The notes: a model not told the origin generated them from the sequence alone. A stretch of 6,564 bases of DNA from Escherichia coli (GCF_003334385.1 NZ_QOWN01000076.1), one strand, 5' to 3'. Shown: positions 2,049-6,564, counted from the first letter of the stretch. Numbers and translations are program-made.

Positions 2049-2651
2049 TCAGGTGCGCTTATCGTCAACCGTTGTGCGGTATGACAGGAGCACGTACTGA
2101 TCCATCAGATCCGTCAGTGCTGCGCTCTGCTTCTGACGGTTGATGATCCATTCCTCCAGCTCTTTTTCTGATTTCCGTTTCAGATTCTCCGTCCAGTCGT
2201 CAAGGCAGTTTCCGGTCATTAAATCAAGCCAGCAAAGCCAGACTAGTTTGAGGCGCAACTCCGTGCCACCAAACTGACGGAAGAGGCTGATCAGTTTATT
2301 TGCCAGAGAACGCTGCCTCAGACGTTCACATTCAGACAGGAGAATGCCTTCCAGCATCGGATGATGAACCAGCAGATGTTCACTGGTGCATAAATTCACT
2401 ATCAGATCATCATCCAGGGGCGGTGTGGCCCGTTTGTCAGGGCCATAAATCAGCCGGTGCAGGCTCTGGGGTACGATGGCAATCTCCGGTTTTTCACCAT
2501 TGAATGACACCCAACCGGGCGTCAGATTATGGAAGTAGTAGATATTCGGATGACACACGCCCCAGGATACGGCGTGCCGGGTGAAGCCGGTCAGCCATTT
2601 CTGGTAGCTTTCGTGGAGCCATTCGTAGCGGGTCTGATACTGTTGTTTCAT
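2049..2651 (-). CDS. Hypothetical protein (about 200 aa), unrecognised family, co-directional and downstream of alpA
   Basis: ORF 2049..2666 on the minus strand. The annotated first codon is GTG; GAGG (complement of 2661..2664) lies 9 nt upstream of the ATG at 2651 and 3 nt upstream of the ATG at 2657, so I prefer 2651 (2657 possible). It starts 94 nt downstream of the alpA stop on the same strand, suggesting an operon. The protein has mixed composition with no low-complexity runs (e.g. GWVSFNGEKPEIAIVPQSLHRLIYGPDKR, LEEWIINRQKQSAALTDLMDQ). I do not recognise the family. Confidence 0.55.
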   Translation of the reverse strand: MKQQYQTRYEWLHESYQKWLTGFTRHAVSWGVCHPNIYYFHNLTPGWVSFNGEKPEIAIVPQSLHRLIYGPDKRATPPLDDDLIVNLCTSEHLLVHHPMLEGILLSECERLRQRSLANKLISLFRQFGGTELRLKLVWLCWLDLMTGNCLDDWTENLKRKSEKELEEWIINRQKQSAALTDLMDQYVLLSYRTTVDDKRT

Positions 2652-2745
2652 TTTCATATTCCTCACGGGGATATAACAGGCAGCAGAATGCCGCCGGCAG
2701 GCCGGAGATTACGTCTGCTGCGGGTGAACGGATAACGGTCAGAAA

Positions 2746-2952
2746 TTACGGACGGGACTGTGCAATACGCGCCTGCAGCCAGGCTTCCACTTCACTTTTC
2801 AGCCAGCGGGAGCTGCGCTCCATTTTGATGGGGGCAGGAAAGCCCCCATCTTTGATGAGTTTGTAAAACCACTTATCGGTTAAGCCGGTAAGTTGAGTGA
2901 TAAACGCCATGTCGACCATCTGGTCATCCATCAGCGAAACAGGGGTAGCCAT
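2746..2952 (-). CDS. alpA: AlpA-family (phage/integrative-element) transcriptional regulator / excisionase-like HTH protein, 68 aa
   Basis: The C-terminal 68 aa of ORF 2746..3186 read MATPVSLMDDQMVDMAFITQLTGLTDKWFYKLIKDGGFPAPIKMERSSRWLKSEVEAWLQARIAQSRP. The ATG at 2950..2952 (complement) is preceded by GGAGG (complement of about 2960..2964). The small size, helix-turn-helix-like core and the motif W-x-x-S-E-V-E-A-W-L resemble the E. coli AlpA C-terminus (W-I-E-A-E-I-D-E-W-L) as I recall it. The 78-codon upstream extension is Pro/Arg/Ser-rich and not protein-like. Confidence 0.75.
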   Translation of the reverse strand: MATPVSLMDDQMVDMAFITQLTGLTDKWFYKLIKDGGFPAPIKMERSSRWLKSEVEAWLQARIAQSRP

Positions 2953-3238
2953 GAGAATGTTCCTCCGGATGTTGTTAAACCAGCCGGTGTGGTCATGAAA
3001 ACAGCGCGCCACCTTCACTGGCATAACAACCGGGGAGAAACGTAAAAAATAATCGGGAATGTGGCTGTCCGGAGATAAACGGGGGGGATTGCGATGGCAG
3101 AGCCGTAGCGGAATCCCGGGTGGTTGTTGCGAAAAGATGCTTCCGCACGCACGCGCGATAAAGGAGGGAGGACTTTCGTGAGACAAGGGGAAAACTAGCG
3201 TTCTGATAATTGCAGAGTTGTTTTCGGAGGTGGTTACA

Positions 3239-3358
3239 GTGAGTCAGCCCGTTCCTGGCGAGGAGGAGACTGATATCACCGATGGGATAAGGCTGTCTGA
3301 TTGGTATTATAAATATAAGAAGTCATCAGAGAGTAACGTAAAGGATTTGCCAGAGTAA
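3239..3358 (+). CDS. Candidate small ORF (39 aa, MSQPVPGEEETDITDGIRLSDWYYKYKKSSESNVKDLPE), divergent from alpA; speculative
   Basis: GTG at 3239 with GGAGG (3226..3230) 8 nt upstream, in-frame stop TAA at 3356..3358. It is below the ORF-track size cutoff. No homology is recognised, and a short ORF next to a good SD can arise by chance. Confidence 0.2.
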   Translation: MSQPVPGEEETDITDGIRLSDWYYKYKKSSESNVKDLPE

Positions 3359-3399
3359 GCTAAGAGAGTAAATCTCTCCGGTAACAGAGCGCTGTGAAT

Positions 3400-3431
3400 C
3401 GTTCATGTATCAGAGTGCAAATACATGAACG
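3400..3431. repeat. 11-bp inverted repeat (CGTTCATGTAT / ATACATGAACG) with 10-nt spacer; candidate operator or RNA hairpin
   Basis: Read directly: 3400..3410 and 3421..3431 are exact reverse complements. There is no adjacent T-run on either strand. The arm sequence ATACATGAAC recurs at 4156..4165. Confidence 0.8.
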
Positions 3432-4155
3432 CTGATGCGTAAAATCAGCAGTGACACGCCAGCTCCCCCTGTGCCCATTCCTGTATAAGACATGAACTGA
3501 GCGTATTAATGCTCCTGCTCTGAGACTGAGCCGGTGAGTGAGGGGCTGAGAAATCCCTCTTGACACAGCTCTAAACCAGAAATACTTCCCCGGTTGTTGC
3601 GGTGCGTCCGGATCCCCGATAACGGAACACTAAGGCTGTATTGCGGGACACCGGGTAAGTGGCAGCCTGTAATGTGTTCTGTCAACGCCAGAAAAAATGA
3701 TTTTTCACACGCGTTATAGACTCACTCCTGTGGACCTGGAAGCCCGTAACTCTGCGGTTGCCCACCGACTGACGGAACTGACCGCAAACTTTACGATCGT
3801 GTTCCTGCTTCCTTCTGGTCACCTGAACTTTTAGCCAGCGCTACGATAAGTCCGGTGTTATCTGCACCGGAGGACCGGGAACATTAAGCGGTATAGCGAC
3901 AACAAAGAATTCGAAATCAAAAGGGAATGGTGCCGGAGGCGTGGGCGGTAATAGGCTGATTTTCAGGTATTACCGGCTTACAACGTGTGGTTGATATTGA
4001 GGGGCTGTGAGTTTCGCGTATTTGTCAGAAACCCAGATGAGTTTTCCTTTATGGGACGAAATAAGGCAGCGGCAATACCTGGAAAAATTTAATATGGTAT
4101 GAAGGAGAACCTGTCGGTTACGCTTAATATACACGGTACACTGTCAGCTCAGGGG

Positions 4156-4165
4156 ATACATGAAC
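4156..4165. repeat. Additional direct copy of the 10-mer ATACATGAAC (same as 3421..3430), just downstream of the zinc-ribbon gene stop
   Basis: Exact 10-mer match read from the sequence. A related 8-mer ACATGAAC is at 3490..3497. Chance recurrence of a given 10-mer in 6.5 kb is unlikely but not negligible. Confidence 0.5.
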
Positions 4166-4172
4166 CGTTATC

Positions 4173-4373
4173 TCACCAGCTACACAGTATACACACACTG
4201 ACGCTGACAGTAGTCAGCAGGACCACAATAATCAGCGCCAGCAGTATGGTAACGATACGGTCTGTATTCCGGTAGTAGCCGAAGGGGTCGACAGAACCAC
4301 AATACGGGCAACACACTGTATTATGAGTAATCGCGTTTCCACAGTCCCTGCACTTCTTTTTGCGTATCACCAT
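4173..4373 (-). CDS. Small zinc-ribbon protein with C-terminal transmembrane helix (66 aa)
   Basis: ORF 4173..4376 on the minus strand. The preferred start is the ATG at 4371..4373 (complement), with GAGGAGGGAG immediately upstream (AGGAGG about 5 nt before the ATG). The protein has two CxxC-type pairs (CRDCG ... CCPYCG) followed by a hydrophobic stretch IVTILLALIIVVLLTTVSVSVCILC. It is divergent from the YagK-like gene across a 200-bp AT-rich intergenic region. Confidence 0.5.
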   Translation of the reverse strand: MVIRKKKCRDCGNAITHNTVCCPYCGSVDPFGYYRNTDRIVTILLALIIVVLLTTVSVSVCILCSW

Positions 4374-4545
4374 CACTCCCTCCTCACAGCCTTACCCGTA
4401 ACCGATTTTTTACATTAAAAAAACAACGCTGAAAATTCAACCGTCAGTCCGGAGACGACCGTTCGGGTTATCACAGAGTGCCTGAGACAGTGTCCTGCCG
4501 GAGGTCACCTCAGGGGCTCTGCGCATTTTTTACGACGTGGTTATT

Positions 4546-4562
4546 CCGTATGAACCATACGG
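4546..4562. promoter_or_regulatory. 17-bp perfect palindrome CCGTATGAACCATACGG overlapping the Shine-Dalgarno of the YagK/YfjJ-like gene
   Basis: Read directly: 4546..4552 (CCGTATG) and 4556..4562 (CATACGG) are reverse complements with a 3-nt centre. The right arm overlaps GGAG (4561..4564), which is the SD for the ATG at 4573. It could be a dimeric-regulator site or an RNA hairpin occluding the RBS. Confidence 0.4.
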
Positions 4563-4572
4563 AGATTTAACC

Positions 4573-5142
4573 ATGACCTACAAATACAACCCCTTCTGGC
4601 AGCAACGTATTCGTGAGACGGTGCGGCACGCACTGAATGTTCATCCCCGCCTGACGGCATTGCGGGTTGACCTGCGTCTCCCGGATGTACCGGCAGCAAC
4701 GGACGCAGCTGTGATATCCCGCTTCATCAATGCCCTGAAAGCCCGAATCGACGCTTACCAGAAACGTAAGCATCGGGAAGGTAAACGCGTGCATCCCACA
4801 ACCCTGCATTACGTCTGGGCCCGGGAGTTTGGGGAGTGCAAAGGTAAAAAACACTATCACCTGATGCTGCTGGTCAACCGGGATACCTGGTGTCGTGCCG
4901 GTGATTACCGCGCTCCGGAGTCTCTGGCCGGGATGATTAAACAGGCGTGGTGCAGTGCCCTGGGAGTGGATGTCGGGTGCCATGCCACGCTGGTGCATTT
5001 TCCGGCCTGGCCGGCGGTGTGGCTGGCGCGTAATGATGACACCGGCTTTCAGCAAGTGCTGGAACGTGCTGACTATCTGGCGAAGGAGCATACCAAAGCT
5101 CACTGCACCGGTGAGCGCAATTTTGGCTGTAGCCGGAGTTGA
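4573..5142 (+). CDS. YagK/YfjJ-family (inovirus Gp2-like) protein with HUH-like and YxxK-like motifs, 189 aa
   Basis: ORF 4537..5142 begins with GTG; the ATG at 4573 has GGAG (4561..4564) 8 nt upstream, so 4573 is preferred. The N-terminus YKYNPFWQQRIRETVRHALNVHPRLTALRVDLRLP matches my recollection of the YagK/YfjJ family. HYH followed by LMLLVN (HYH at 4852..4860) is an HUH-type motif, and YLAK lies near the C-terminus. The long antisense ORF 4567..5436 is rejected as GC-driven. Confidence 0.7.
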   Translation: MTYKYNPFWQQRIRETVRHALNVHPRLTALRVDLRLPDVPAATDAAVISRFINALKARIDAYQKRKHREGKRVHPTTLHYVWAREFGECKGKKHYHLMLLVNRDTWCRAGDYRAPESLAGMIKQAWCSALGVDVGCHATLVHFPAWPAVWLARNDDTGFQQVLERADYLAKEHTKAHCTGERNFGCSRS

Positions 5143-5219
5143 GCACGACTGGCGCGCCAATATCCGGCAAACCAAAAGTATGGGTTGTTGTCTGGCGGCA
5201 ACGATGTATCCACTCGCCC

Positions 5220-5243
5220 ACTGACTGTTTTTTACGTCAGTGT
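5220..5243 (+). other. Possible hairpin (CACTGAC / GTCAGTG, 7-bp stem, 10-nt T-rich loop) in the intergenic region after the YagK-like gene
   Basis: Read directly. The T-run is inside the loop rather than after the stem, so terminator function is uncertain. Confidence 0.25.
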
Positions 5244-5395
5244 TCCATTGTGTGACAACCACAGTGCTGTAACAGCAACCAGCCTGCTTTACCCAAACTC
5301 CAGTCCAGATTTTAACTGAACCGCCATTCACACCCTGACCACGCTGCCCGTACCGGGACGGCTGTTGCCTGCGTGTCGTCTGGCGGCTGAGGTAT

Positions 5396-5803
5396 ATGAC
5401 TATGTACGCAAAATCCTTTATCGCTCTTGATGGCAACGGACGTCTGACGGGCGCCCGTACTGCACAGGCCGCACCTTATGCTAACTACACCTGCCACTTG
5501 TGTGGCAGTGCACTCAGATACCATCCGCAATACGAAACTGAACTTCCCTGGTTTGAACACACTGACGACAGGCTGACAGAGCACGGTCAACAGTGCCCTT
5601 ATGTCAGGCCGGAGCGCAGAGAAATACAGTTGATTAAACGTCTGCAGCAATTCGTACCGGATGCCTTACCCGTGGTGCGTAAAGCCAGCTGGCACTGCAG
5701 ACAATGTCACCACGATTATTATGGGGAGCAGTACTGCACACACTGCCAGACCGGAGGATTCAGTATTCCCCGGACAACTCAGGAGGAAATATGCGAATTC
5801 TGA
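5396..5803 (+). CDS. Cys-rich putative zinc-binding protein, paralog A (135 aa), unrecognised family
   Basis: ORF 5396..5803. GAGG (5389..5392) precedes the ATG at 5396 by 3 nt and the ATG at 5402 by 9 nt, so the start is one of the two. It contains CHLCG ... PWFEH ... W-H-C-R-Q-C-H-H-D-Y-Y-G-E-Q-Y-C-T-H-C-Q-T-G, and aligns along its length with the downstream protein. Confidence 0.6.
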   Translation: MTMYAKSFIALDGNGRLTGARTAQAAPYANYTCHLCGSALRYHPQYETELPWFEHTDDRLTEHGQQCPYVRPERREIQLIKRLQQFVPDALPVVRKASWHCRQCHHDYYGEQYCTHCQTGGFSIPRTTQEEICEF

Positions 5804-6225
5804 ACTGTTATATGGCGAATGACAGCAAAGGCCATTTTGTTACGGCGAAAGAAGCTGCGAAGCACAACCGACAGGACGTTTTGTGCTGTGTGTCCTGTGG
5901 ATGCCCGTTAACACTTCAGCGGGGCAATGACGGACAACCACCGTGGTTTGAACATGACCAGATGACTGTCGCTGAAAAAATCCTGCTGCGATGTACCTGG
6001 CTTGACCCGGCAGAGAAAGAGGCCCGTCGTTTGCATCTGCAGGGCATGACGGTTCCGGATTATACGGTGAAGGTGAGAAAGTGGTTTTGTGTGATGTGTG
6101 ACGAAGATTATGAGGGGGAAAAGTGCTGCCCACGCTGCGGTACCGGGGTATACAGCAGGGCGTGGGGGCGGCAGGAGGTGCCGTCGGAAGATGCCAGGGC
6201 TGATAATCCGTTACAGAGGCTGTAA
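5791..6225 (+). CDS. Cys-rich putative zinc-binding protein, paralog B (144 aa), translationally coupled to paralog A
   Basis: The ATG at 5791 has a strong AGGAGG (5781..5786) 4 nt upstream and overlaps the last 13 nt of paralog A (stop 5801..5803). The ORF-track start at 5704 is an unsupported extension. It contains CCVSCGC ... PPWFEH ... W-F-C-V-M-C-D-E-D-Y-E-G-E-K-C-C-P-R-C-G-T-G. Confidence 0.6.
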   Translation: MRILNCYMANDSKGHFVTAKEAAKHNRQDVLCCVSCGCPLTLQRGNDGQPPWFEHDQMTVAEKILLRCTWLDPAEKEARRLHLQGMTVPDYTVKVRKWFCVMCDEDYEGEKCCPRCGTGVYSRAWGRQEVPSEDARADNPLQRL

Positions 6226-6461
6226 TGGTTGCCTCCGGAGCAGTTTGCGGTGATGCCTTTCCCGGGAATGGATTGCCGGTGCGGGGACTGTGGAGCTTAA
6301 TTCCGGTGTTGGTGGCCTTTCCGTTGATTTTATGCCAACAGCCCCCTGTGACTGACAGGCTGCCTCGTCATTCCATTCGTATCTCCAGTAACAGGGGGTT
6401 GTATTGTATTTTATTGTGCCGGTTCAGGTGTGCGTTTCCCGGCGCGTCTGCACCGGCTTAA
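6225..6461 (+). CDS. Possible small protein (78 aa) whose ATG overlaps the paralog B stop (TAATG); low confidence
   Basis: ATG at 6225..6227 overlaps TAA at 6223..6225, with GAGG (6216..6219) 5 nt upstream. The protein is Pro/Gly/Leu/Arg-rich with one hydrophobic stretch (LWSLIPVLVAFPLIL) and could equally be a GC-driven artefact. Confidence 0.2.
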   Translation: MVASGAVCGDAFPGNGLPVRGLWSLIPVLVAFPLILCQQPPVTDRLPRHSIRISSNRGLYCILLCRFRCAFPGASAPA

Positions 6462-6564
6462 CCAAATTCAACAGGGATAAAATAGTGGTAAGCGTACAGC
6501 CTGAACCGTCTGGTCAGAATCTGACGAATTAGACAAAGTGGTGTCCACCAAATAAGTAGTGGGA

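Follow-up and report, generated by a model that had tools for sequence, protein, structure and literature searches.

The integrative islands CP4-57 (intA-yfjH-alpA-yfjI-yfjJ) and CP4-6 (yagK) of Escherichia coli K-12 are among the closest described systems to the locus presented here, and islands of this class typically carry a P4-like integrase together with alpA. We analyzed a 6,564-nucleotide (nt) stretch of E. coli DNA (NZ_QOWN01000076.1, assembly GCF_003334385.1; hereafter the window, with positions counted from its first letter) with respect to the interval 4546–6461, which encodes a YagK/YfjJ-family protein and two cysteine-rich zinc-ribbon paralogs, designated ZnA and ZnB. With moderate confidence, we favor a model in which this interval belongs to the conserved backbone of a CP4-57/CP4-6-type integrative island, and not to its cargo, and in which it comprises at least two expression units.

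A sequence search of genomes matched the window to many E. coli chromosomes at 100%. In NZ_CP027310, the interval lies within a composite CP4-type genomic island which also carries genes for the Ag43 adhesin, a GTPase, a DUF932 protein, an antirestriction protein, a RadC-like JAB protein, a CbtA/YeeU toxin-antitoxin pair, YfjI and an AlpA-like helix-turn-helix (HTH) protein, as well as several insertion sequence (IS) elements and the fec operon. The window and K-12 CP4 islands are of the same kind, with GTPase, DUF932, antirestriction, RadC and CbtA/CbeA genes, and the families in common with the K-12 islands include YfjI (53% identical), the YagK/YfjJ protein (36–39% identical) and an AlpA-family HTH protein. 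Unlike in the window, genes of the DUF7828 family, to which ZnA and ZnB belong, are found at neither the yfjJ nor the yagK locus of K-12, and yfjJ is followed there by the convergent defence genes abpB/abpA; moreover, alpA and a gene for a protein of ~200 amino acids (aa) are inverted relative to yagK in the window, unlike in K-12. No integrase gene was found in the window or in the flanking sequences examined.

A comparable gene content has been described in Pseudomonas, where the integrase-distal end of islands at the tmRNA site (I23, I44 and I55) harbors both alpA and an inovirus Gp2-like gene, proposed by the authors as core element functions, with defence cargo placed between these core genes and the integrase (bioRxiv 10.1101/2024.08.29.610337). 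By analogy, this finding fits the backbone reading. The likeness lies in gene content and edge position; host and attachment site are different, and no mention of a zinc-ribbon pair was found in the text of that paper as far as it was searched (bioRxiv 10.1101/2024.08.29.610337).

The YagK-like gene and the zinc-ribbon pair

In genomes matching the window at 100%, RefSeq annotates three plus-strand coding sequences (CDS) in the interval, with the products "inovirus Gp2 family protein", "putative zinc ribbon protein" (ZnA) and "zinc-ribbon domain-containing protein" (ZnB):

4573–5142, plus strand: YagK/YfjJ-family ('inovirus Gp2 family') gene, 189 aa; Pfam PF11726 and PF23343; RefSeq CDS
5402–5803, plus strand: ZnA, 133 aa; DUF7828 (CxxC...WFEH...C) and a C-terminal CxxC...CxxC zinc ribbon
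5791–6225, plus strand: ZnB, 144 aa; paralog of ZnA; Shine–Dalgarno sequence (SD) AGGAGG at 5781–5786
5791–5803, plus strand: overlap of the ZnA stop and the ZnB start, 13 nt, ATGCGAATTCTGA

These genes correspond to the YagK-like gene and the two coupled Cys-rich paralogs of the original prediction, which was also right in placing them in DNA of higher GC content than the left part of the window (0.51–0.585 in the interval vs 0.435–0.48 in the first 2 kb). All three already carry annotations but are unstudied, and they belong to the backbone of an island that is very common in E. coli.

The YagK-like protein matches PF11726 (YagK_YfjJ_C) over the full length of the model (positions 1–170 of 170; E 4.8e-48) and, more weakly, PF23343 (REP_ORF2-G2P; E 3.3e-5). 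Both the HUH motif (HYH in KKHYHLMLLVN) and the YLAKExxK motif (YLAKEHTK) are intact in the window protein. With HUH initiators of the inovirus gpII type, YagK shares the REP_ORF2-G2P match, the H-hydrophobic-H signature and a downstream YxxK, and a hairpin adjoins its gene, as at many HUH origins. However, YagK is much shorter than gpII, and the overlap of its hairpin with SD and AUG points to control of translation rather than to an origin. To our knowledge, neither nicking activity nor an origin or a circular replicating form has been described for the YagK family. For this protein, PHROGs returned only a family of unknown function and the PDB no sequence match, and a homolog is present in one phage record only, OR844780.1 (93.7% identical). 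The latter is an unannotated 4,468-bp entry (Escherichia phage ECO111 5-P) that does not carry ZnA.

In many genera, ZnB is followed by a second Gp2-like paralog, here termed YagK2 (Pfam UCP030791, NCBI 'inovirus-type Gp2 protein'), for example at L007:10836–11471, L033:6900–7466 and L024:10852–11391, in which the HUH and Tyr motifs are no longer present; the E. coli window does not encode it, its island ending after ZnB. In a motif alignment, HUH and YLAKExxK are kept in eight YagK1-type sequences and lost in four of the YagK2 type.

ZnA and ZnB each combine a DUF7828 domain (PF25165; E 5.5e-31 and 9.3e-31, respectively) with a following Zn_ribbon_11 domain (PF11682; E 8.6e-9 and 1.7e-18), and are 30% identical to each other over 125 aa (E 3e-15). 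In a 48-sequence alignment, C31, C34, H53 and C99 are invariant and C65, C102, C112 and C115 occur in at least 90% of the sequences; two zinc sites are predicted in each protein (CxxC...H...C and CxxC...CxxC). ZnA starts at the ATG at 5402 (MYAKSF...), which is conserved in all genera compared. The ATG at 5396, from which the gene had originally been predicted to start, is present in E. coli alleles only and could be ruled out, which gives a gap of 259 nt to yagK in place of the earlier ~250 nt.

The predicted 13-nt overlap at 5791..5803 proved to be a conserved feature of the pair. Exactly 13 nt (ATGCGnnTnCTGA) are shared by the two reading frames in E. coli, Salmonella, Mixta, Hafnia, Superficieibacter, Siccibacter, Tenebrionibacter and a Klebsiella plasmid, that is, in eight genera or replicons with the plasmid included. 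This conserved overlap predicts that ZnA and ZnB form a genuine translationally coupled bicistronic pair. Because the two proteins have no catalytic domain, carry two zinc modules each, are coupled at a fixed 1:1 ratio and are constantly accompanied by AlpA and HUH-like proteins, we infer that they bind zinc and assemble into a heteromeric DNA- or RNA-binding factor of the excision, replication or regulation core of the island.

In the AlphaFold (AF2) model of ZnA (pLDDT, the per-residue confidence, 88.9), a small N-terminal domain rich in beta structure is followed by a helix and, at the C-terminus, by a zinc ribbon. Among the 50 matches listed from AFDB50, all are uncharacterised zinc-ribbon/DUF3279/DUF7828-type proteins of Enterobacterales, under names which include Ybl85 and, for some, an erroneous designation as RNA polymerase subunit. 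No match to the module's proteins was found among solved structures, and NCBIfam gave none for YagK, ZnA or ZnB. The DUF7828 family is small, with 284 clusters at E ≤ 0.001 in a full hidden Markov model scan of 1.84 billion representative proteins; it is found in only 33 of 72,556 plasmid records, and tblastn gave no match for ZnA in 50,697 phage records.

Small zinc-finger proteins are known from P2/P4-type elements, whose late-gene activators P2 Ogr and P4 Delta are of the Cys4 type, Delta being a tandem duplication of the Ogr module. The duplication that gave ZnA and ZnB resembles that of Delta as a functional analogy only: the Ogr_Delta profile is not among the Pfam matches listed up to E 10 for either protein, and ZnA and ZnB are larger than Ogr/Delta, carry two zinc sites each and, in the case of ZnA, have no match in the phage records searched. 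A CxxC...aromatic-x-H motif is also common to ZnA/ZnB, the N-terminal zinc domain of CoiA, DUF7830 and RPB9-type double zinc ribbons. The corresponding matches are sub-threshold (ZnB to DUF7830, E 0.077, and to CoiA_N, E 0.39) or below significance (the family profile to RPB9 across both zinc modules, E 0.009), and ZnA/ZnB, unlike the CoiA and RPB9-type systems, have no nuclease or polymerase context.

The ratios of non-synonymous to synonymous substitution (dN/dS), 0.09–0.23 for yagK, 0.17–0.21 for ZnA and 0.08–0.25 for ZnB, bear on the possibility that these genes no longer function and are decaying relics of a cryptic element. The surrounding island is indeed full of IS elements and pseudogenes, and many database entries are fragmentary. 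Nevertheless, with dN/dS at 0.08–0.25 for all three genes, with metal ligands, 13-nt overlap and the leader of znA conserved across genera, and with intact copies in most E. coli genomes, we regard decay as highly improbable. Two small overlapping genes on a mobile element could likewise be taken for an addiction (toxin-antitoxin-like) or stability module, a reading that appears very unlikely: the products are paralogs of the same zinc-binding architecture, unlike known toxin-antitoxin pairs, single-copy versions exist, and neither NCBIfam nor PADLOC returned a toxin-antitoxin or other family match.

Sequence elements ahead of yagK and znA

The non-coding DNA around the YagK-like gene and in the gap preceding znA holds the following elements:

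4406–4436, plus strand: sigma-70-like promoter candidate, TTTACA-16-GAAAAT, with the -35 inside the TTTTTTACR copy at 4406–4414
4474–4534, plus strand: inverted repeat in the yagK leader, imperfect 13-nt arms at 4474–4486 and 4509–4521, then CGCA and TTTTTTACG (4526–4534)
4536–4575, plus strand: stem-loop at the yagK start, 17 pairs; folding -19.5 kcal/mol, z = -6.25
5219–5242, plus strand: gap hairpin, 7-bp arms at 5219–5225 and 5236–5242, 10-nt loop holding a copy of TTTTTTACG (5228–5236)
5318–5395, plus strand: conserved non-coding ZnA leader, core 5340–5384; GGGACGG and GCCTGCGTGTCGTCTGGCGG nearly invariant
3041–3049, minus strand: alpA-side copy of the TTTTTTACR motif, TTTTTTACG, 88 nt upstream of alpA
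4406–4414, 4526–4534 and 5228–5236, plus strand: further TTTTTTACR copies

The 17-pair stem at the start of yagK takes in both the SD (GGAG, 4561–4564) and the AUG (4573–4575), and none of 200 shuffled sequences folded as well. It had been proposed that the ribosome-binding site of this gene is embedded in a perfect 17-bp palindrome; the gating hairpin stands, while the perfect palindrome reduces to an inner hairpin (4545–4563) with 8-bp arms (4545–4552 and 4556–4563) and a 3-nt loop, inside the 17-pair stem. With SD and start codon locked in this structure, yagK translation is probably off by default. Hairpins are found at the same place before YagK1-type genes in other lineages, with differing sequence: the arms read TCCGTATG/CATACGGA in E. 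coli, CCGG...GGTTAT/ATAACC...CCGG in the Hafnia group and TTCCTTTG/CAAAGGAA in Citrobacter, and in all of these the 3′ arm extends into the SD. Such conservation of position with varying sequence favors selection for structure. The hairpin may thus serve as a translational lock or, since YagK keeps its HUH and YxxK motifs, as a DNA hairpin recognized by YagK.

No covariance model of Rfam 15 matched anywhere in the window at E ≤ 1, the yagK hairpin and the znA leader included. The inverted repeat at 4474–4534 is a candidate terminator-like or regulatory element within the yagK leader. A consensus scan of the whole region found two sigma-70-like sites against 2.9 expected, which alone is no evidence of function.

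The second element that stands out is the leader of znA. Between E. coli and seven loci of other genera, its core is 83–91% identical, compared with 65–70% for the ZnA CDS, 40–64% for third codon positions and ~50% for the DNA further upstream. The leader is present as a single copy per locus and always lies directly before a ZnA-type gene, whatever is found upstream. Its pattern occurs in three of the 2.9 million contigs of IMG/VR, and ZnA follows in all three. In a metagenome scan with a degenerate version of the pattern, ZnA follows in 43 of the 80 loci examined; the other 37 comprise 34 with unrelated flanks (chance-like), two in which the contig ends within 50 nt of the match and one, L057, with partial flank similarity.

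A structured RNA at this position was rejected: RNAalifold gave -0.9 kcal/mol with almost no covariation, the single-sequence z was -0.74, and a candidate stem (GCUGCCC/GGG(A)CGGC) is broken in several genera. A coding role was rejected as well, on the basis of 1-nt and 10-nt indels between the conserved block and the ATG. The leader may be read as a DNA-level operator or promoter, or as a sequence-specific RNA site. By eye, its GG-N10-GC spacing resembles a sigma-54 promoter; the -12 TT is not conserved and no activator gene is found nearby.

These observations bear directly on a rival reading in line with the earlier view, namely a single co-transcribed operon of three or four genes that is gated as a whole by the palindrome, with an attenuator in the gap. 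In its favor, the genes all share one orientation, a search for terminator-like sites found none across 5143–5401, and about half of E. coli genomes have YagK and ZnA side by side. On the other hand, the stem-loop covers the SD and AUG of yagK alone; the leader stays with ZnA whatever lies upstream, even a truncated unrelated pseudogene; other genera have alpA or another gene between YagK and ZnA, or a Gp2-like gene downstream; and the fourth open reading frame (ORF) is not conserved. The gap hairpin, predicted at 5220..5243, is likewise not conserved: the stretch is replaced entirely in other E. coli alleles (L030/L031), and of it only TTTTTTACGTCA recurs in some other genera. The expectation of a regulatory element in the gap was thus correct in spirit, with the conserved segment at 5318–5395 taking the place of the hairpin. 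Because ZnA has its own leader of ~45–75 nt, which is better conserved than its CDS, the interval is probably not one three-gene operon, and we consider the single-operon reading rather unlikely.

A further signal is the 9-mer TTTTTTACR, of which the window contains four copies where 0.14 would be expected: one precedes the start of alpA by 88 nt, two precede that of yagK, by 158 and 38 nt, and one precedes that of znA, by 165 nt. In other genera, it is found at matching distances from the same genes, often just 3′ of a GC-rich hairpin, including 38–45 nt before yagK-type starts. This distribution suggests a common signal ahead of separate units, which may be a shared promoter element, a terminator tail or a binding site. 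Its interpretation as a sigma-70 promoter at yagK or alpA is not convincing, with spacers of 14–15 nt.

Gene neighborhood across genomes

Two genes to the left of the interval take part in the comparison:

2746–2952, minus strand: alpA, AlpA-family (Vis/excisionase-like HTH) gene; member of the same conserved gene set
2049–2654, minus strand: gene for a ~200-aa protein without a Pfam family, which recurs beside alpA, DUF7828 and Gp2-like genes in other taxa

Both are encoded on the strand opposite to yagK in E. coli, 1.6–2.5 kb upstream of it. The ~200-aa protein recurs at loci L005, L013, L024 and L036, in several genera, and is the fourth member of the conserved gene set.

Among 5,426 complete E. 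coli genomes, the YagK allele is present in 3,526 and the ZnA–ZnB pair in 3,787, the latter usually in two copies. The junction from YagK across the gap into ZnA is covered to at least 80% in 2,691 of these genomes, and both yagK and znA lie under the junction match in 21 of 25 evenly spaced rows. Outside E. coli, one genome per species was scanned with ZnA-type sequences as query, yielding 16 Enterobacterales loci, to which divergent family members and a Klebsiella plasmid were added; ORFs were classified with iterated profiles. The resulting sample comprises ~21 non-redundant contexts from other Enterobacterales, the Klebsiella plasmid and metagenomes.

In 19 of the 21 contexts, which include relatives only 24–28% identical to ZnA, alpA, a Gp2-like gene or both lie within ~3.7 kb of the DUF7828 gene. 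The commonest array outside E. coli is YagK1-AlpA-ZnA-ZnB-YagK2, found in Hafnia, Superficieibacter, Siccibacter, Tenebrionibacter, a metagenome-assembled genome and a Klebsiella IncFIB/HI1B plasmid. Salmonella diarizonae and Mixta show the order AlpA, ~200-aa protein, ZnA, ZnB, YagK2, and a metagenome contig the order AlpA-X-Zn-YagK-X-Zn-AlpA, in which X is the ~200-aa protein; the four families are also arranged in varying orders around the relatives of 24–28% identity. In other Enterobacterales, the gene upstream of ZnA is usually alpA, and, as judged from these gene orders, the direct YagK–ZnA adjacency is specific to the E. coli arrangement.

The comparative check of whether the genes move together thus agrees with the original prediction insofar as they are not independent cargo: the families co-occur. 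The proposal of a single three- to four-gene unit, in contrast, is not supported, given that adjacency is not conserved outside E. coli, that the fourth ORF is no gene and that ZnA has its own leader. By gene content, the association is real but one-directional, in that DUF7828 genes need this company whereas Gp2-like genes often occur without DUF7828.

In the backbone model, the first unit would produce a YagK/YfjJ protein akin to the HUH replication nucleases of the inovirus gpII type, its start being locked by the stem-loop, and the second would be the bicistronic, translationally coupled ZnA/ZnB pair behind the conserved, apparently unstructured leader of ~45–75 nt, which would act as the operator or promoter switching the pair. 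Made in fixed proportion, ZnA and ZnB would form a zinc-ribbon nucleic-acid-binding complex, which might act with AlpA and the HUH protein to control or perform island excision, replication or mobilisation. A more specific version appears rather unlikely to us, namely that YagK, as an active HUH nuclease, together with ZnA/ZnB and AlpA constitutes an excision-coupled replication or mobilisation initiator of CP4-type islands, in which ZnA/ZnB would give the nuclease its DNA-site specificity and the leader and yagK hairpin would be operator, origin or nick site.

Defence-like cargo is often found just beyond the module (L019 10651–20390; L034 6400–9320; L036 8447–10381; L038 8352–12001), in the form of a Dpd cluster, SMEK_N/CTD10 with MC6 and DUF2326, an SMC/AAA protein and, in K-12, AbpAB, which suggests a cargo hotspot adjoining the backbone. 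Such neighbors near this position (AbpAB after yfjJ in K-12, the Dpd cluster in Citrobacter, SMEK_N/CTD10 with MC6 and DUF2326), together with the antirestriction and RadC-like genes of the island, could also be taken to mean that ZnA/ZnB, alone or together with YagK, make up a cassette for anti-phage defence or anti-defence. However, YagK, ZnA, ZnB and the fourth ORF gave no matches at E ≤ 0.01 to the 5,027 models of PADLOC-DB 2.0, so that the phage-defence idea raised earlier found no support; the proteins lack enzymatic and effector domains; the pair is kept with the backbone genes while the cargo varies between loci; and it is absent from the 50,697 phage records. We therefore consider a defence role quite unlikely.

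Several points weigh against the backbone model. At the CP4-44 site of E. coli YPE12, the pair starts 48 nt after a truncated rdcB pseudogene, the result of a deletion, with no YagK or AlpA nearby; as indicated above, the K-12 genes yfjJ and yagK (36–39% identical to the window protein) have no DUF7828 gene near them; and some taxa have a single DUF7828 gene. Without a terminator-like site in the gap, read-through from yagK into znA is possible, and both the yagK hairpin and the znA leader may act either as RNA or as DNA. A ZnA–ZnB fusion with a 30-aa linker between the chains gave an AlphaFold pLDDT of 53.7 and a pTM (predicted fold-level score) of 0.29, from a shallow paired alignment of 10 rows. 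Finally, literature searches with DUF7828, Zn_ribbon_11, DUF3279, Ybl85, product names and accessions found no functional study; the module is catalogued in databases yet uncharacterised.

The island edge and its biological context

To the right of ZnB, the window contains:

6225–6461, plus strand: proposed fourth ORF, rejected as a gene; non-coding terminal island DNA
6488–6564, plus strand: left end of an IS66-family element, starting GTAAGCG

The fourth, TAATG-coupled small ORF of the original prediction is present as a junction (TAATG at 6223–6227) but not as a gene. It has 78 codons in this allele only and is frameshifted elsewhere: in three IS-free E. coli alleles, a 1-nt indel within a run of C shortens it to 43 codons, and deletions of 6 and 12 nt follow further on. 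The stretch of 262 bases that follows ZnB was found in 2,142 genomes and carries no annotation in 30 evenly sampled RefSeq records, and the ORF has no family match in NCBIfam, PADLOC or PHROGs.

The segment from 6488 to 6564 is assigned to the IS element because homology to IS-free alleles stops at 6488 and, in NZ_CP027310, an IS66-family tnpA begins 16 nt past the window end. In IS-free alleles, the island ends ~0.5 kb beyond the position of the IS66 junction and gives way, ~0.76 kb after ZnB, to genes of the chromosome (an ACT-domain pseudogene, a DeoR regulator and rbsK), which places the module at the island edge.

Further features lie between alpA and yagK. At 3697–3834 (plus strand), a 45-aa ORF has a marginal Hha/YmoA match (Pfam E 0.0011), and related alleles have an annotated 49-aa Hha/YmoA-family gene at this position. 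At 4173–4376 (minus strand), a gene divergent from yagK and kept beside it in E. coli alleles encodes a 67-aa protein in which a CxxC...CxxC zinc ribbon forms the N-terminal part and a hydrophobic helix the C-terminal part. The ~1 kb between alpA and this gene is largely ORF-free; over ~2953–4176, gene coordinates imply a 1-nt length difference to NZ_CP027310, the sequences being otherwise identical.

New in this analysis are the conserved leader and the recurrent combination of two HUH-like and two zinc-ribbon paralogs, neither of which was found in the literature searched. Between about one half and two thirds of complete E. coli genomes contain these genes, frequently as multiple copies, and the families of the module are also present in Salmonella, Klebsiella, Citrobacter and other Enterobacterales. 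CP4-type islands carry Ag43, the fec operon, toxin-antitoxin and defence systems, and their replication, movement and regulation are poorly understood. Were the initiator reading true, it would concern islands that are commonly regarded as cryptic, immobile prophages; if the genes are ordinary regulators, they would still provide useful annotation for a large uncharacterised family. Overall, the translationally locked HUH-type protein, the coupled zinc-ribbon pair and the leader conserved beyond its CDS offer testable handles on the biology of these islands.

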